Below, in pieces: positions 1 through 4,023 of a DNA stretch of 4,023 nt. The notes below the pieces were generated by a model. It saw nothing but the letters and a program-made list of their open reading frames with translations. It was not told where the DNA came from and made no database searches. Each line of letters starts with the position of its first letter. Position 1 is the first letter of the stretch. This DNA comes from a virus (taxonomy: Duplodnaviria; Heunggongvirae; Uroviricota; Caudoviricetes): IMG/VR virus record IMGVR_UViG_2579778622_000009; one strand, given 5' to 3'. The position numbers and the translations under genes were made by a program.

Positions 1-122
1 CACCACTTTGTCTAATTCGTCAGATTCTGACCAGACGGTTCAGGCTGTACGCTTACGGATATACCGCCAGCCTGGTTGATAAAAAATGGTTGCGACTGGC
101 AGCAAGGAGGAATCATGGCTGA
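1..122 (+). CDS. ninE: NinE-family protein, C-terminal fragment (start lies upstream of the window)
   Basis: Frame 3 is open from the window edge to TGA at 120-122 and translates ...[39 protein letters not shown]. The basic C-terminus and the position immediately upstream of ybcO fit the ninE slot of lambdoid nin regions. It is absent from the ORF track because no start codon lies inside the window. Identity is from recalled similarity, not a search. Confidence 0.55.
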   Translation, partial: PLCLIRQILTRRFRLYAYGYTASLVDKKWLRLAARRNHG

Positions 123-405
123 TTTGAGAAAAGCAGCGCGTGGTCGGGAATGCCAGGTAAGAATCCCTGGCGTATGTAATGGCAATCCTGAAACGTCTGT
201 ACTGGCACATATCCGGCTGGCTGGATTGTGCGGTACCGGTATCAAACCGCCAGACCTGATTGCCACCATTGCATGTTCTGCCTGTCACGACGAGATCGAC
301 CGTCGCACGCATTTTGTTGACGCTGGATATGCAAAAGAATGCGCGCTGGAAGGTATGGCGAGAACGCAGGTTATCTGGCTGAAAGAGGGGGTAATTAAGG
401 CGTGA
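116..405 (+). CDS. ybcO: DUF1364-family protein, putative zinc-binding nuclease (YbcO-like), 96 aa
   Basis: ATG at 116 is preceded by a strong Shine-Dalgarno AAGGAGG at 104-110. The product [29 protein letters not shown]...[13 protein letters not shown] is Cys/His-rich and matches DLP12 YbcO as recalled. The ORF-track start at 76 has no RBS and would overlap ninE. Stop TGA at 403-405. Confidence 0.85.
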
Positions 406-764
406 ATACCTACAATATCACATTACCCTGGCCGCCGAGCAATAATCGCTATTACCGCCATAATCGCGGGCGCACGCACATCAGCGCAGAGGGGCAGGCA
501 TACCGCGAAAACGTCGCCCGAATCATTAAAAACGCAATGCTGGATATCGGCCTGGCTATGCCTGTGAAAATCCGCATTGAGTGTCACATGCCGGATCGCC
601 GTCGCCGTGACCTGGATAATCTACAAAAGGCCGCTTTTGACGCACTCACCAAAGCAGGTTTCTGGCTGGATGATGCTCAGGTCGTTGATTACCGCGTTGT
701 GAAGATGCCGGTTGTCAAAGGTGGAAAGCTGGAACTGACCATCACTGAACAGGGAGATGAATGA
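402..764 (+). CDS. rusA: RusA-family Holliday junction resolvase, 120 aa
   Basis: GTG start at 402 overlaps the ybcO stop (GTGA), with a purine-rich GAGGGGG at about 385-391 upstream. The product has the RusA hallmarks: N-terminal [11 protein letters not shown], and acidic residues D70, D72 (RRDLDNL) and D91 (WLDDAQV) at the known catalytic positions. Confidence 0.9.
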
Positions 765-901
765 TGTTTGAGTTTTATATGGCAGAACTTCTTCGCCACC
801 GCTGGATGCGCCTGCGCTTATATCGTTTCCCCGGTTCTGTTTTGACCGATTACCGAATACTGAAGAATTACGCCAAAACACTGACAGGAGCAGGAGTATG
901 A
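761..901 (+). CDS. ylcG: Small basic protein YlcG-like, 46 aa (not in the supplied ORF track)
   Basis: ATG at 761 overlaps the rusA stop (ATGA). Hand translation gives [46 protein letters not shown] with stop TGA at 899-901. Its position between rusA and Q matches the DLP12 ylcG slot. Confidence 0.6.
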
Positions 902-986
902 AGTCAGAGATAACAATCAACTAATACTGTTTTGTTGATTTTTGCTTGTAATTGGCGTTCTGGTCTGAGTTTTGTGGAGTAAGTTG

Positions 987-1370
987 ATGCGTGATATTCA
1001 GATGGTTCTTGAGCGTTGGGGAGCGTGGGCGGCTAATAATCATGAAGATGTGACCTGGTCGTCCATTGCCGCCGGTTTTAAGGGATTAATTCCTTCAAAA
1101 GTAAAATCTCGCCCACAATGTTGTGACGATGACGCGATGATCATTTGCGGGTGCATGGCCCGTCTGAAAAAGAACAACAGCGATTTGCATGATTTATTAG
1201 TAGATTATTATGTAGTCGGTATGACATTCATGTCACTGGCAGGTAAGCATTGCTGCTCTGATGGTTATATCGGGAAAAGGTTACAGAAGGCTGAGGGCAT
1301 AATTGAAGGGATGTTAATGGCATTAGATATCCGGTTAGAGATGGATATCGTTGTTAATAACTCTAATTAA
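987..1370 (+). CDS. quuD: Q-like late-gene transcription antiterminator (QuuD-like), 127 aa
   Basis: ATG at 987 is preceded by GGAG at 976-979; the ORF-track GTG at 972 is probably an over-extension. The product [24 protein letters not shown]... carries Cys clusters ([15 protein letters not shown]) consistent with a zinc-binding Q family. It sits in the canonical spot upstream of the late promoter region and lysis genes. Stop TAA at 1368-1370. Confidence 0.85.
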
Positions 1371-1390
1371 TATGCCAATTGTTTACTAAA

Positions 1391-1421
1391 AATTATTAAA
1401 AATGGGGCGTTGAGACGCCCC
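1391..1421 (-). terminator. Rho-independent terminator on - strand, likely ending the nmpC transcript
   Basis: Perfect 6-bp GC stem GGGGCG (1404-1409) / CGCCCC (1416-1421) with loop TTGAGA. Read on the - strand it is followed by ATTTTTAATAATTTTT (complement of 1391-1403). On the + strand it is followed by CAAAAATAAA, so it is orientation-specific for the - strand. Confidence 0.5.
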
Positions 1422-1440
1422 CAAAAATAAAGGGTAATAT
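1410..1440 (+). promoter_or_regulatory. Candidate Q-dependent late promoter (pR'-like): -35-like TTGAGA at 1410-1415, -10-like TAATAT at 1435-1440
   Basis: Found by eye about 40-70 bp downstream of the Q stop, where lambdoid pR' normally lies. The 19-bp spacer is suboptimal. A -10-like TTTATATAG at about 1451-1460 in the presumed initial transcribed region could act as a sigma-dependent pause element. Boxes are inferred, not verified. Confidence 0.25.
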
Positions 1441-1509
1441 ATAACAGAAGGTTTATATAGTTAGAAGCAAGGTTGTGCTTCTAAAGGAAGTGGCTTGAGG
1501 GAGCCACTT

Positions 1510-1550
1510 ATATGTTGGGGAGGCAAAGCCTCCCGCAACATATCTTTTTC
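1510..1550 (+). terminator. Rho-independent terminator on + strand (tR'-like), ending the short late leader transcript
   Basis: Stem 1510-1524 (ATATGTTGGGGAGGC), loop AAA, stem 1528-1543 (GCCTCCCGCAACATAT) with one bulged G, followed directly by CTTTTTC at 1544-1550. The U-tract is present only in the + orientation. Confidence 0.5.
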
Positions 1551-1559
1551 GTAATCAGA

Positions 1560-2642
1560 TTAGAACTGATACACCAGACCTACAGCGACGATGTCGTCGG
1601 TATCAATACCAGCTGTTTTGGTAAACTTACTATCGTCAATTAAGTTGATTTTGTAATCAACAAAAGTGGACATGTTTTTATTAAAGTAGTAAGTAGCACC
1701 GACATCGACATACTTGACTAAGTCTCGGTCACCATGAACACCAAGGTCTTTACCTTTTGACTGAAGGTAAGCAACAGATGGTCGCAGACCGAAGTCAAAC
1801 TGATATTGTGCTACTGCTTCAAAGTTTTGTGCTTTGTTTGCAATATGGTTATTACCAAAAACGGTCATATTCTGAGTTTCAGAATATGTGGTAGCCAGAT
1901 AGATATTGTTCGCATCATATTTCAGGCCTGCAGCCCATACTTCCGCATTTTTGCCGGAGGCATTGAATTTGCTCTTACCATAGGCGACCTGACCGTCAGT
2001 GCGATCTGATTTAGCATAGGTTGCACCCACGCCGAATCCTTCATACTCATAAGTAGTGGAGAAACCGAAACCATCACCATTGGCTTCAGTTACGTCAGTG
2101 CGGTCATTTTTACCCTGATACTGAGCAGCAAAGTTCAGGCCATCGACCAGACCAAAGAAGTCGTTGTTACGATAGGTTGCAACACCAGTGGTGCGACCAG
2201 TCATGAACACATCTGTTTGGGTCCAGGTATCGCCACCGAATTCTGGCAGAACGTCAGTCCACGCACCGATGTCGTATGCTACACCGTAGTTACGGCCGTA
2301 ATCGATTGAGCCGTAGTCACCGAATTTCAGGCCTGCAAATGCAAGACGGGTTTTGTCTTTGGAGGAACCTTGAGATTCAGCGCGGTTGCCTTTGAATTCA
2401 TATTCCCACTGACCGAAACCAGTCAGTTGATCGTTGATTTGGGTTTCACCTTTGAAGCCAAGACGGGCATAAGTAGTATCACCATCATCTGCATCGTTAG
2501 AGGAAAAGTAGTGCTTGGCATTAACTTTCCCGTACAGATCCAGCTTGTTACTGTCTTTATTATAAATTTCAGCTGCCTGAGCAGACATCGCCATCAGTAC
2601 TGATGCAGCTACAGCAGAAATTGCCACTGTTAATTTTTTCAT
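1560..2642 (-). CDS. nmpC: Outer-membrane general porin, OmpC/OmpF/PhoE family (NmpC/Lc-like), 360 aa precursor, apparently intact
   Basis: N-terminal signal peptide [23 protein letters not shown] followed by the mature start [17 protein letters not shown], typical of enterobacterial porins. Aromatic/Gly-rich beta-barrel composition. C-terminal ...VGLVYQF with terminal Phe, the beta-barrel assembly signature. Start codon complement CAT at 2640-2642, stop complement TTA at 1560-1562. Confidence 0.92.
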
Positions 2643-2760
2643 CGTGAGCCCTTTTTTTTGAACTATTATTAAAAAATGATGTCACTGCGCGATAAATATT
2701 CATCTAATCAATGTGATTATTTCAAGATGTAAGTTTTAGTTTCTCATTTAATTTGTGAAG
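2643..2760 (-). promoter_or_regulatory. nmpC translation-initiation region and probable promoter/5'UTR (exact boxes uncertain)
   Basis: On the - strand an A-tract plus AAGGG lies just upstream of the ATG (complement of 2643-2660). A candidate -35 TTGAAA is at the complement of 2720-2725. The region is extremely AT-rich. Transcription start not determinable from sequence alone. Confidence 0.25.
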
Positions 2761-3230
2761 TAGATCTCTATTTTTATCTGAACTTTTTCTATCGAAACCT
2801 ATTTATGGCTCTTATTTGAACAAAAATAAACCTATTAGCTAATTTATATTAATGGCTGTTATTTATGGGGGTTCTATAATTCGGTGGTTTAATTTAAATC
2901 AACTAAAAATAACGCCGGAAATTATTTATTGGTTATTTGTTGAGGTTTTCTTATATATTTGTGGTGGTGTTTTGAACACTCGGTAGCATTCTCATAAATA
3001 TCATTCAGTGGTTTACGTACGTAAAAAATTGGTTATGCTGTTAAGAGTGGTTACTTCGTCACACAGCTTAAACCCGCCGTCGAGCTGGTTTTTCCATTTT
3101 TTGAGTCTCGATATTAGCTGATAACTCAATACCTGAGTTATTCACTGACTCCGAGTCTGTTACGTTTCTGCTTTTTTGCGATACGTTGTATTCCCTCAAT
3201 TTACACCCGCTTTGTCTGCGAGGTGGGGTT

Positions 3231-3446
3231 ATGAAATCCATGGATAAGTTAACAACGGGTGTCGCCTATGGCACCTCAGCAGGTAGTGCCGGTTACTGGT
3301 TTTTACAGCTGCTCGATAAAGTCACGCCCTCACAGTGGGCAGCAATAGGTGTGCTGGGTAGCCTGGTATTTGGCCTGCTGACGTACCTGACAAACCTTTA
3401 TTTCAAGATTAAAGAAGATAAGCGCAAGGCTGCGAGAGGTGAATAA
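3231..3446 (+). CDS. essD: Class II pinholin (phage 21 S-like) with dual-start motif, 71 aa
   Basis: RBS GAGGTGGGG at 3220-3228 and ATG at 3231. The product [71 protein letters not shown] has two transmembrane segments and a basic C-terminus. Met1-Lys-Ser-Met4 gives two in-frame starts (3231 and 3240), as in holin/antiholin pairs. The ORF-track start at 3186 is probably an over-extension. Confidence 0.9.
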
Positions 3447-3943
3447 TGCCTCCATCATTACGAAAAGCCGTTGCTGCTGCTATTGGTGGCGGAGCAATTG
3501 CTATAGCATCAGTGTTAATCACTGGCCCAAGTGGTAACGATGGTCTGGAAGGTGTCAGCTACATACCATACAAAGATATTGTTGGTGTATGGACTGTATG
3601 TCACGGGCATACAGGAAAAGACATCATGCTCGGTAAAACGTATACCAAAGCAGAATGCAAAGCCCTCCTGAATAAAGACCTTGCCACGGTCGCCAGACAA
3701 ATTAACCCGTACATAAAAGTTGATATACCGGAAACAACGCGCGGCGCTCTTTACTCGTTCGTTTACAACGTGGGCGCTGGCAATTTCAGAACATCGACGC
3801 TTCTTCGCAAAATAAACCAGGGCGATATCAAAGGCGCATGTGATCAGCTACGTCGCTGGACATATGCTGGCGGTAAGCAATGGAAAGGTCTCATGACTCG
3901 TCGTGAGATTGAGCGTGAAATCTGTTTGTGGGGTCAGCAATGA
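3446..3943 (+). CDS. rrrD: SAR endolysin (T4-lysozyme-type muramidase with N-terminal signal-arrest-release domain), 165 aa
   Basis: ATG at 3446 overlaps the pinholin stop (TAATG). The N-terminus [20 protein letters not shown] is a Gly/Ala-rich weakly hydrophobic segment typical of SAR domains. Glu35, Asp44 and Thr50 ([18 protein letters not shown]) sit at the catalytic-triad positions of T4-lysozyme-like enzymes. Stop TGA at 3941-3943. Confidence 0.9.
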
Positions 3944-4023
3944 ACAGAGTAACCGCGATTATCTCCGCTCTGGTTATCTGCATCATCGTCTGCCTGTCAT
4001 GGGCTGTTAATCATTACCGTGAT
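3940..4023 (+). CDS. rzpD: Rz-like inner-membrane spanin (i-spanin), N-terminal fragment continuing past the window end
   Basis: ATG at 3940 overlaps the endolysin stop (ATGA). Translation [28 protein letters not shown] is an N-terminal transmembrane anchor, as expected for Rz, and lies directly after the endolysin. Confidence 0.7.

Follow-up and report, generated by a model that had tools for sequence, protein, structure and literature searches.

The window analysed here, a 4,023-nt stretch of DNA from a Caudoviricetes record (IMGVR_UViG_2579778622_000009), is 100% identical over positions 56–4023 to both ATCC 8739 and E. coli C. It carries the late antiterminator gene quuD on the left, the lysis genes essD and rrrD on the right and a porin gene on the opposite strand between them (Table 1), an arrangement that agrees with an earlier note describing the porin as prophage cargo placed between Q and S in the opposite orientation. 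QuuD, annotated under that name in ATCC 8739 and K-12, is 79% identical to the Q protein of 933W (E=4e-76) and matches the Q21 structures only distantly (E=7.6e-8). The phage 21 Q-binding element GCAAATGAGCAACA was rejected as a candidate, its only matches having three mismatches and lying inside the Q gene, at chance level.

Table 1. Features of the porin cassette and its flanks (positions in the window)
Feature	Position	Strand	Basis
quuD, late antiterminator Q of 933W/H-19B type, left boundary of the cargo slot	987–1370	+	Pfam Phage_antitermQ, E=9.7e-54
Four or five stable hairpins between Q stop and porin stop	1404–1550		Folds and terminator scan
Hairpin with minus-strand T-run, likely porin mRNA terminator	1404–1421	−	Terminator scan
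Hairpin followed by CTTTTTC, likely terminator for Q-operon read-through	1510–1543	+	
Porin gene, nmpC/lc type, intact	1560–2642	−	ORF, profile and structure matches
Porin stop codon	1560–1562	−	
Mature porin, coding part	1563–2573	−	
Porin signal peptide, coding part	2574–2642	−	Mature-chain alignments
Porin 5' UTR, ~43–48 nt, AU-rich	2643–2690	−	PA-2 identity and published start
PnmpC start site (G)	~2685–2690	−	Exact base deduced
Probable PnmpC core: −35 TTGAAA (2720–2725), −10 GAATAT (2696–2701), 18-nt spacer	2696–2725	−	
Proximal CRP site ATAGAGATCTACTTCACAAAT	2751–2771	−	Annotated in PA-2 J02580, 100% identity
Putative late promoter pR', Q933W/QuuD type: −35 TTTACG (3012–3017), 16-nt spacer, −10 TATGCT (3034–3039)	3012–3039	+	933W homology
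Early-transcribed pR' leader with invariant TAAGAGTGGTTAC, presumed Q-loading/pause region	3040–3102	+	Alignments
Leader hairpin: 5' arm 3070–3077, loop 3078–3083, 3' arm 3084–3091, T-run to 3102	3070–3102	+	
essD holin / rrrD endolysin, first late genes, right boundary	3231–3446 / 3446–3943	+	Pfam Phage_holin_2_1, Phage_lysozyme; annotation

The ORF listing gives a minus-strand frame at exactly the porin interval, with an ATG start, 360 amino acids and the C-terminus VGLVYQF. The Pfam family Porin_1 (PF00267) spans the whole protein (profile positions 1–337 of 337, E=1.9e-151), and the NCBIfam "porin OmpC" subfamily model scores it at 521 bits against a cutoff of 484. Solved OmpC, OmpK36, PhoE and OmpF chains match residues 24–360, starting from chain residue 1 to 3 (E down to 6e-137). 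Because these mature crystal chains begin at query residue 24, residues 1–23 can be assigned to a signal peptide cleaved between AQA and AE; since the same alignments reach residue 360, the C-terminus is untruncated. The PEFGG motif of loop 3 lies at residues 133–137, and the C-terminal Phe (YQF) is present. An AF2 model of moderate confidence (pLDDT 70, poor in the loop 3 region) has 16 strands, long loops alternating with short turns and a 37-residue loop 3. A 360-aa frame with a full-length family match of 505 bits is far beyond chance. By these measures the gene is complete and has all the sequence hallmarks of a 16-strand trimeric general porin, and the earlier note had rightly identified a porin that runs uninterrupted from signal peptide to terminal Phe.

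Judged by its identities, the protein belongs to the NmpC/Lc/OmpD clade and is a known, ordinary gene. In the three comparisons that the earlier note had proposed, it reaches 90.7% identity with both PA-2 Lc and reconstructed K-12 NmpC, and its full-length identity with Salmonella OmpD is 79%. The figures are lower, at 64% for OmpN, 63% for OmpC and 59% for OmpF, among the E. coli chromosomal porins, with which it has the Pfam family, the fold, the PEFGG loop 3 and the C-terminal Phe in common. OmpD, a chromosomal core gene in Salmonella whereas the gene here is prophage cargo, is like nmpC a reported RybB target with a seed site early in the CDS. The window protein carries the RefSeq label "porin OmpC" because its score exceeds the cutoff of the NCBIfam subfamily model, a broad one. 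The name is misleading for a gene in the argU prophage, away from the ompC locus next to micF, whose product has 63% identity to K-12 OmpC; it is not the orthologue of ompC. This porin family dates back to the studies of PA-2 and K-12, and the exact protein already has a RefSeq entry.

The closest described counterparts are the lc cassette of phage PA-2 and the nmpC locus (b0553) of the K-12 prophage DLP12. Window positions 1333–4023 align across the whole PA-2 record (GenBank J02580) at 92% DNA identity, and the PA-2 cassette has the same orientation relative to R/Rz; Lc has 365 amino acids against 360 here, with the differences clustered in loops L4–L8. DLP12 is the same type of prophage at argU, with the same neighbours (ybcO, rusA, ylcG and quuD on one side, essD and rrrD on the other). 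Its left arm is 97% identical to the window, but its porin and right arm show only 90.5% DNA identity, so that the two carry different alleles. In MG1655, IS5B interrupts nmpC, leaving 1040 bp on the 5' side and 58 bp on the 3' side, in agreement with the earlier note, which had placed the disruption near the 3' end; the window copy is unsplit. No IS5 sequence or remnant, for which that note had recommended a search, is present in the window, nor does the corresponding position have TTAG, the target site duplicated on IS5 insertion in K-12.

The earlier note had treated the intact state as noteworthy, a view that the population counts overturn. The porin cassette, with an intact gene, is present alongside this Q gene at all loci examined as well as in sequenced lambdoid phages. 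Searching IMG/VR with QuuD gave only loci whose Q is at least 99% identical, and in this set the porin was intact in all 79 assessable loci, as 13 alleles of 360 or 365 amino acids. The gene also occurs in dozens of phage records: Q, spacer and porin are found together in 35, and an identical porin protein in at least 12, including ev017, ev207, 2G7b, Perceval and PhiR11_1. Of 5426 complete E. coli genomes, 2503 (46%) hold at least 80% of the gene. For the nmpC-type porin, then, the intact state is the norm, and the disruptions in K-12 (IS5) and B (IS1) are the exceptions seen. Isolates from nature usually have a working copy, in contrast to K-12 and B. Allelic variation is concentrated in the surface loops, which hold 31 of the 44 variable positions, with none in turns (odds ratio 5.9, p=1.4e-7). 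Such loop-focused variation would be expected if phages, colicins or immunity exert pressure on the porin.

We next consider where late transcription begins relative to the porin. Window positions 3011–3093, between the porin 5' end and essD, are the homologue of the annotated pR'/tR' segment of 933W, an annotation that itself reads "promoter, putative, homologous to pR'". The predicted start in the window is A3046. The scanner calls the homologous promoter of Sakai Sp5 (TTTACG-16-TATCAT), with a predicted start 257 nt upstream of the end of the terminator T-run, which fits the 258-nt PR' transcript published from dRNA-seq/Term-seq. The pR' assignment draws on this homology and on that one distance match. 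A two-piece homology, Q plus the 3011–3093 block, recurs in six comparator phages, and porin-less phages share homology with the window only from ~3215 onward. The leader is near-invariant in alignments of the window, K-12, PA-2, SfII, phiP27, 933W and H-19B, even though the Q proteins of SfII and phiP27 are merely 47–48% identical to QuuD, and we infer that it acts as the Q-binding and pause region. Because the pR' homologue is beyond the porin, the porin cassette sits between Q and Q's own late promoter. Late transcription would then start past the porin 5' end and run away from the gene. On this placement the porin and the late genes are transcribed divergently, and the antisense relation that the earlier note had proposed does not arise.

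The canonical lambda layout, with pR' adjoining Q, would instead put the promoter in the 190-bp spacer 1371–1559, so that late transcription would run antisense through the porin and the gene would occupy a post-pR' slot like that of stx. Within the spacer, TTGAGA-17-GGTAAT weakly resembles a promoter; strong hairpins come after it, the final one having a T-run on the plus strand. Just past the Q stop, a short sequence (AATTGTTTAC-----TAAAAAT) is similar to the −35 region of 933W pR'. However, position 2 of the candidate −10 is not the essential A, and the scan gave no promoter call in the spacer. A pR' relic adjoining Q was rejected, as local alignment of the pR' block with the spacer gave a score of 15, equal to the shuffle mean of 15.0 and thus no significant similarity, and the actual homologue of 933W pR' is the 3011–3093 block. 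In SfII, moreover, the Q stop and an antisense cargo gene are only 3 bp apart and the pR' block follows the cargo; since this gap leaves no room for a promoter, pR' of SfII cannot adjoin Q. The same split between Q and the pR' block is found in PhiR40_1, POCJ13 and phiP27. We regard a Q-adjoining pR' at the window locus as highly improbable. The Q-proximal spacer was also aligned with those of POCJ13 and PhiR40_1, where divergence was too high to inform.

A second placement, which we consider unlikely though somewhat less so, would make the Q-dependent promoter of the lysis cassette a sigma-E-type essDp at ~2691, back-to-back with the porin promoter PnmpC, and would reduce 3011–3093 to a leader element. 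It draws on PMC7918800, where the regulatory region, citing Rueggeberg 2015, is cloned as −121 to +650. The forward primer given there maps to window positions 2570–2589 and so would put the essDp +1 at ~2691, not at 3046; the plus strand near 2691 reads TGAACTAT-N16-GTCACT, which is sigma-E-like on our reading. Against this, the essDp region is common to no other Q933W-family phage whereas the 3011–3093 block is common to all, and a late promoter dependent on sigma-E only would be unusual for a lytically growing phage. Q dependence does not discriminate essDp from pR', because all reporter fragments used included the 3011–3093 block. With either promoter the start is past the porin 5' end, so the porin would still be uncrossed by late transcription.

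Our preferred reading, to which we assign a probability of about 80%, is that an intact nmpC/lc-type general-diffusion porin forms a self-contained cargo cassette (~1400–3005) in the late-control region of a DLP12-type lambdoid prophage, at the position between Q and pR'. The cassette would bring its own promoter. In K-12, 5' RACE puts the PnmpC start at a "G", and the homology arm for an rrnB terminator placed "immediately downstream of PnmpC" maps to window positions 2684–2734 (PMC11677980). Positions 2643–2712 show zero differences from PA-2. The PnmpC hexamers in Table 1 are probable assignments, made by reading the sequence relative to the published start. Deleting the −199 to −1 segment, within which the candidate core falls, removed PnmpC activity in K-12 (PMC11677980). 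A strict consensus promoter scan of the window called neither PnmpC nor pR'. Both CRP sites annotated in PA-2 J02580 are 100% conserved, as are the core promoter and 5' UTR, and the centre of the proximal site is ~72 bp upstream of the PnmpC start, a class I geometry. Crp activates PnmpC, which in K-12 is the main driver of IS5 transposase mRNA, while OmpR, IHF and MprA are listed as nmpC repressors alongside sRNA control (PMC11677980). From this K-12 and PA-2 literature and the conserved sites, a sigma-70 promoter of the porin's own would fire leftward from the mapped start, activated by CRP at the proximal site and repressed by OmpR and IHF.

The porin mRNA would also be a target of RybB, as reported for nmpC mRNA. 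A 7-nt complement to the RybB seed lies at codons 5–7; pairing as good arises in 31 of 300 shuffles, so the match by itself does not stand out. MicC pairing at the canonical ompD site was not recovered in the window porin, the best MicC duplex falling elsewhere and being uninformative, and an Rfam scan of the whole window returned zero matches at E up to 1.

At the other end of the cassette, the RNA of the hairpin cluster between quuD and the porin is exceptionally stable on both strands (plus strand z=−6.5, minus strand z=−8.3; none of 200 shuffles reached this stability), and the spacer is 95–98% conserved among 35 porin-carrying phages. From their folds and T-runs, these hairpins would be expected to act as terminators, ending the porin mRNA and shielding the gene from rightward read-through of the Q operon. 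Separately, a 24-nt imperfect direct repeat (1379–1402 and 2652–2675, 75%) brackets the cassette; it is AT-rich and possibly due to chance.

With such an organisation, a resident prophage would express the porin independently of Q and of induction. The protein would be exported by Sec and assembled by BAM, and would add or substitute a pore with distinct surface loops, altering permeability and the landscape of phage and colicin receptors. That the porin remodels the outer membrane and changes phage or antibiotic susceptibility, as the earlier note suggested, is plausible.

The cassette architecture is also compatible with a porin that is intact but quiescent in its host, silenced through H-NS or OmpR or repressed by sRNAs, as for ompN; such a porin would add little to the outer membrane in ordinary conditions. 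The DNA upstream of the porin is very AT-rich (27–30% GC), the kind that H-NS silences; repression by OmpR, IHF and MprA and control by sRNAs are in the literature (PMC11677980), and historically nmpC was termed a "quiescent" porin gene in laboratory strains. That quiescence, however, is explained by the IS5 and IS1 insertions, and the core promoter and UTR of the window are identical to those of PA-2. Lysogens of PA-2 make Lc as a major protein, as described in the 1970s–80s. In K-12, PnmpC is active enough to be the chief driver of IS5 transposase mRNA (PMC11677980). Moreover, the intact ORF in 79 of 79 loci, together with the loop-focused variation, argues for selection on an expressed surface protein. 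We consider quiescence improbable, although less so than either alternative placement of the late promoter. Because the K-12 and B copies are disrupted and many wild strains can make the porin, studies of outer membranes, antibiotic uptake and phage receptors in laboratory strains miss it.

The earlier note had likened the position of the porin to that of Shiga toxin genes. The likeness stands for gene order: in 933W, Sakai Sp5 and phiP27, whose Q is of the same family and whose pR' is homologous, the Stx cargo likewise occupies the Q-to-S interval. It fails for the relation to the promoter, since stx is a late-strand gene downstream of both pR' and tR' that needs Q read-through. The porin, by contrast, is upstream of pR', on the minus strand, opposite to the plus-strand late genes, and has a promoter of its own. 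The porin is not the only occupant of the gap between Q and pR', which is filled by ORFs in SfII and PhiR40_1 (antisense) and in POCJ13 and phiP27 (sense). We tentatively suggest, while judging it somewhat short of even odds, that the Q-to-pR' junction of Q933W/QuuD-family phages is a recurrently used cargo slot, separate from that of Stx, whose cargo would be expressed in lysogens while insulated from late transcription. Literature searches on PA-2 Lc function and on a described cargo slot of this kind returned nothing usable. Architecturally, the position itself is of modest interest.

With pR' beyond the cassette, the regulation of the porin, and likewise that of the DLP12 lysis genes, has to be read differently; these lysis genes have been linked to biofilm and vesicle phenotypes. 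If the cargo-slot reading is true, the published DLP12 "essDp" start would lie ~355 bp upstream of the real pR', and the distal "CRP site" annotated for lc would be the Q-loading leader. Position 3086 in the leader hairpin, a G in K-12 and a T in the window, would on the same reading set how leaky the lysis genes are without Q. The hairpin folds at −12.0 kcal/mol with G (z −3.7) and at −6.7 kcal/mol with the T of the window (z −1.4), and of the 79 loci roughly 40 have one variant and 39 the other.

The porin gene, an nmpC/lc-type ORF in a DLP12-type lambdoid prophage, is flanked by the late antiterminator gene quuD (Q) on one side and by the lysis genes on the other. The earlier note had read it as antisense to late transcription, which presumes a lambda-like late promoter pR' adjoining Q; the pR' homologue we found lies beyond the porin 5' end. 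QuuD shares 79% identity with Q from the Stx phage 933W (E=4e-76). Assignment to the Q21 type was rejected, as kinship is only distant and the Q21 binding element is absent. Window 3005-3105, used as a query, matched a block at the Q 3' end (76-77% identity) in hundreds of Stx phages. The 933W record annotates this block as "promoter, putative, homologous to pR'" and also as "terminator, putative, homologous to tR'", the terminator of pR'. In Sakai Sp5, a promoter scan calls TTTACG-16-TATCAT; its predicted start is followed, exactly 257 nt further down, by the end of a second hairpin/T-run, in agreement with the PR'-to-tR' transcript of 258 nt that dRNA-seq and Term-seq had mapped (PMC7547250).

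Features of the window, with positions on its given strand
Feature	Position	Strand	Detail
Outer end of IS66-family element	1-57		
ybcO, rusA, ylcG	left of porin	+	Pfam/NCBIfam profile searches
quuD (Q)	987-1370, left of porin	+	Pfam/NCBIfam profile searches
Q-porin spacer	1371-1559		
Direct repeat, copies	1379-1402 and 2652-2675		
First spacer hairpin	1404-1421		T-run on minus strand
Last spacer hairpin	1510-1543		then CTTTTTC on plus strand
Porin gene	1560-2642	-	ATG start, 360 codons, TAA stop
PnmpC start	~2685-2690	-	deduced from homology arm
Proximal CRP site	2751-2771		PA-2 record
pR' block	3011-3093	+	homology
pR' block, -35		+	TTTACG, common to window and 933W alignment
pR' block, spacer		+	16 nt, contains CGTAAAAA, shared in alignment
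pR' block, -10		+	TAnnnT; TATGCT in window, TATCAT in 933W
pR' block, downstream of -10		+	invariant TAAGAGTGGTTAC
pR' block, end		+	GC hairpin, then T-run
Putative pR'	3012-3039	+	predicted start 3046
Distal CRP site	3046-3066		1986 PA-2 lc record
Leader hairpin	3070-3091		conserved
essD (holin), rrrD (endolysin)	3231-3943, right of porin	+	Pfam/NCBIfam profile searches

Homology to the window fell into two pieces in all six comparator phages, one at Q (985-1319) and one at the pR' block. The two pieces are 88 bp apart in 933W and H-19B, and are separated by a sense-strand gene in POCJ13 and phiP27, by antisense genes in PhiR40_1 and SfII, and by the porin cassette in the window. In SfII, only 3 bp separate the Q stop from the antisense cargo, leaving no room for a promoter beside Q. 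Porin-less phages show homology to the porin-holin spacer only from ~3215 on, with the exception of SfII (window 3016-3225) and phiP27 (window 3034-3093), both of which match past the cargo that comes after a QuuD-family Q (47-48% identity to QuuD). The alignments point to a pR' beyond the porin and place the porin between Q and pR'. Late transcription would begin past the porin 5' end and head away from it. The likeness to Shiga toxin drawn in the earlier note holds for gene order but not for the slot, since stx lies downstream of pR'. What the analysis adds appears to be this architecture alone, a cassette that separates Q from its cognate pR'. Four other QuuD-family phages have unrelated cargo in the corresponding gap, and our literature search found no description of it as a cargo position, although it may already be known. 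The antisense ORFs that fill it in SfII (locus 329-1943) and PhiR40_1 (locus 2738-3184) are uncharacterised.

A competing coordinate comes from the published lysis-operon start, essDp. The DLP12 lysis-operon regulatory region was cloned as -121..+650 (PMC7918800, citing Rueggeberg 2015), and the forward primer maps to window 2570-2589, so that this numbering puts essDp at ~2691, some 355 bp before the pR' start defined by homology. The plus strand near 2691 reads as a sigma-E-like TGAACTAT-N16-GTCACT. Because the cloned fragment also includes the pR' block, the Q dependence of the reporter cannot separate essDp from pR'; with either, the promoter is past the porin 5' end. The essDp position nearly coincides with the start of the porin's own promoter, PnmpC, and diverges from it.

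Downstream of the predicted pR' start, position 3086, in the 3' arm of the leader hairpin, is polymorphic between G and T. With G, the K-12 state, the hairpin has an 8-bp stem (-12.0 kcal/mol, z -3.7); with T, the state of PA-2 and the window, that stem is lost (-6.7 kcal/mol, z -1.4). Across 79 IMG/VR loci the two states are almost equally common (about 40 to 39), and the difference could alter how much transcription reads into the lysis genes independently of Q. The pR'-to-essD leader of K-12 lacks about 28 bp (window ~3164-3193, around CTGCTTTTTTGCGATA) that the window, PA-2 and SfII all have.

On the other side of the porin, RNA folding predicted four or five stable hairpins in the 190-bp Q-porin spacer (z=-6.5 on the plus strand, z=-8.3 on the minus strand), the first of which was called by a terminator scan. 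We infer that the spacer acts as a two-way insulator, ending the porin mRNA and blocking rightward read-through from the Q operon. Any antisense relation of the porin would be to early pR-derived read-through, not to late transcription. The hairpins at 1404-1550 are unusually dense, would form a ~155-nt structured 3' UTR on the porin mRNA, and had no match among Rfam families. Two further resemblances lack statistical support: the porin lies between the two copies of an imperfect 24-nt direct repeat (75%), the second of which overlaps the sigma-E-like -35, and AATTGTTTAC-----TAAAAAT just past the Q stop resembles the 933W pR' -35 region.

In K-12, PnmpC is an active sigma-70 promoter at most 199 bp from the start codon, and its start by 5' RACE is a G. 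Crp activates it through two operators, OmpR, IHF and MprA repress it, and sRNA control is also reported; its strength makes it the main driver of IS5 transposase mRNA (PMC11677980). The homology arm that placed a terminator "immediately downstream of PnmpC" in that study maps to window 2684-2734, which locates the start in the window and implies a 5' UTR of ~43-48 nt. The PA-2 record annotates two CRP sites, and the window carries both with 100% conservation. The proximal site is centred ~72 bp upstream of the PnmpC start, a class I geometry. The distal site exactly overlays the invariant early-transcribed pR' leader, and its conservation appears better explained by Q function than by CRP binding, because the leader is equally conserved in Q933W-family phages without a porin. 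PA-2 and the window show zero differences over 2643-2712, 2751-2796 and 2968-3151, with differences clustered in 2797-2916. E. coli nmpC mRNA is reported to be a RybB target (PMC3333887); porin codons 5-7 hold a perfect 7-nt complement to the RybB 5' seed, which is not distinctive alone (31/300 shuffles pair equally well). Duplex prediction on the porin mRNA did not recover MicC pairing at the ompD site.

The porin ORF itself is real, lies at precisely the coordinates first given, and is complete from signal peptide to terminal Phe, as first read. Its protein covers the whole Pfam Porin_1 profile (1-337/337, E=1.9e-151), carries the loop 3 signature PEFGG at residues 133-137 and ends in ...VGLVYQF. 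Porin residues 24-360 align with the OmpC, OmpK36, PhoE and OmpF chains of crystal structures from chain residue 1-3 onward, indicating that residues 1-23 are the signal peptide and that the C-terminus is complete. In the comparison with Lc, nmpC and ompD suggested in the earlier note, PA-2 Lc and reconstructed K-12 NmpC each share 90.7% identity with the porin, and Salmonella OmpD shares 79%; the value for P7 NmpC is 81%, and those for the E. coli host porins OmpN (64%), OmpC (63%) and OmpF (59%) are lower. By sequence, the porin groups with the NmpC/Lc/OmpD clade. It passed the NCBIfam "porin OmpC" subfamily cutoff and did not reach the PhoE and OmpF equivalog cutoffs; the RefSeq name "porin OmpC" derives from this broad subfamily model. 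The gene is of an already-known kind, with the exact protein present in RefSeq and in sequenced phages, and its probable function is drawn from these close relatives.

The K-12 copy is disrupted by IS5 near its 3' end, as the earlier note says: MG1655 nmpC (b0553) is annotated as 1040-bp and 58-bp fragments with IS5B between them, and removing IS5 and one 4-bp target copy restores a 365-aa ORF. A check for an IS5 remnant found no IS5 sequence in the window, which also lacks the TTAG target at the position matching the K-12 insertion. DNA identity to K-12 is only 90.5% over the porin and right arm, against 97% over the left arm, and the window porin is a distinct allele, not merely K-12 nmpC without IS5. 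E. coli B derivatives carry the window's allele, broken by IS1. The laboratory phage 434B (OL657227.1) has the K-12 IS5-interrupted nmpC together with quuD and the lysis genes, evidently acquired from DLP12 via recombination; a phage thus stays viable with the 1.2 kb IS5 in the cassette.

Intact copies are not unusual at all. An IMG/VR scan with QuuD returned 80 loci with Q at least 99% identical, and the porin was intact in all 79 with enough sequence to assess it, with no stops or frameshifts; these encode 13 distinct proteins of 360 or 365 aa, the window's exact protein among them in 11 loci. The phage collection held 42 porin-encoding records, and the identical protein occurs in 12 phage records (9 distinct phages, including ev017, ev207, 2G7b, Perceval and PhiR11_1). 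At least 80% of the porin gene is held by 2503 of 5426 complete E. coli genomes. The disruptions seen were in the laboratory lineages K-12 and B.

When Lc is compared together with the 13 IMG/VR alleles, one of which is the same as K-12 NmpC, 44 porin positions vary, with patches at residues 182-187, 216-231, 263-267, 294-312 and 335-347. An AlphaFold2 model gave a 16-strand barrel with long loops alternating with short turns (mean pLDDT 70; 75-89 over residues 170-360, where the variable patches fall). On this model, extracellular loops L3-L8 hold 31 of the 44 positions and periplasmic turns hold none (odds ratio 5.9, Fisher p=1.4e-7), a pattern that would be expected where a surface protein is expressed and diversifying pressure acts on it.

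From base 56 to base 4023, the window matches at 100% identity the argU DLP12-type prophage of many genomes, among them E. coli ATCC 8739 and strain C. The IS66-family end is 100% identical to the ISEc8 terminus of strain JB2 and closes with GTAAGCG, the inverted-repeat signature of this family; the insertion lies in ninE, DLP12 homology restarting at base 56, and no complete genome among the best matches listed spans the junction. The first 41 bp of the porin CDS (window 2602-2642) have a 100% match in unannotated DNA at ~1.9-2.0 Mb in several genomes among the matches listed. In the one genome inspected, AMSCJX04, this 41-bp match (locus 2501-2541) directly follows emrE-ybcL-ybcM within a decayed DLP12-like remnant that has lost, by deletion, all from ybcN to the greater part of the porin.
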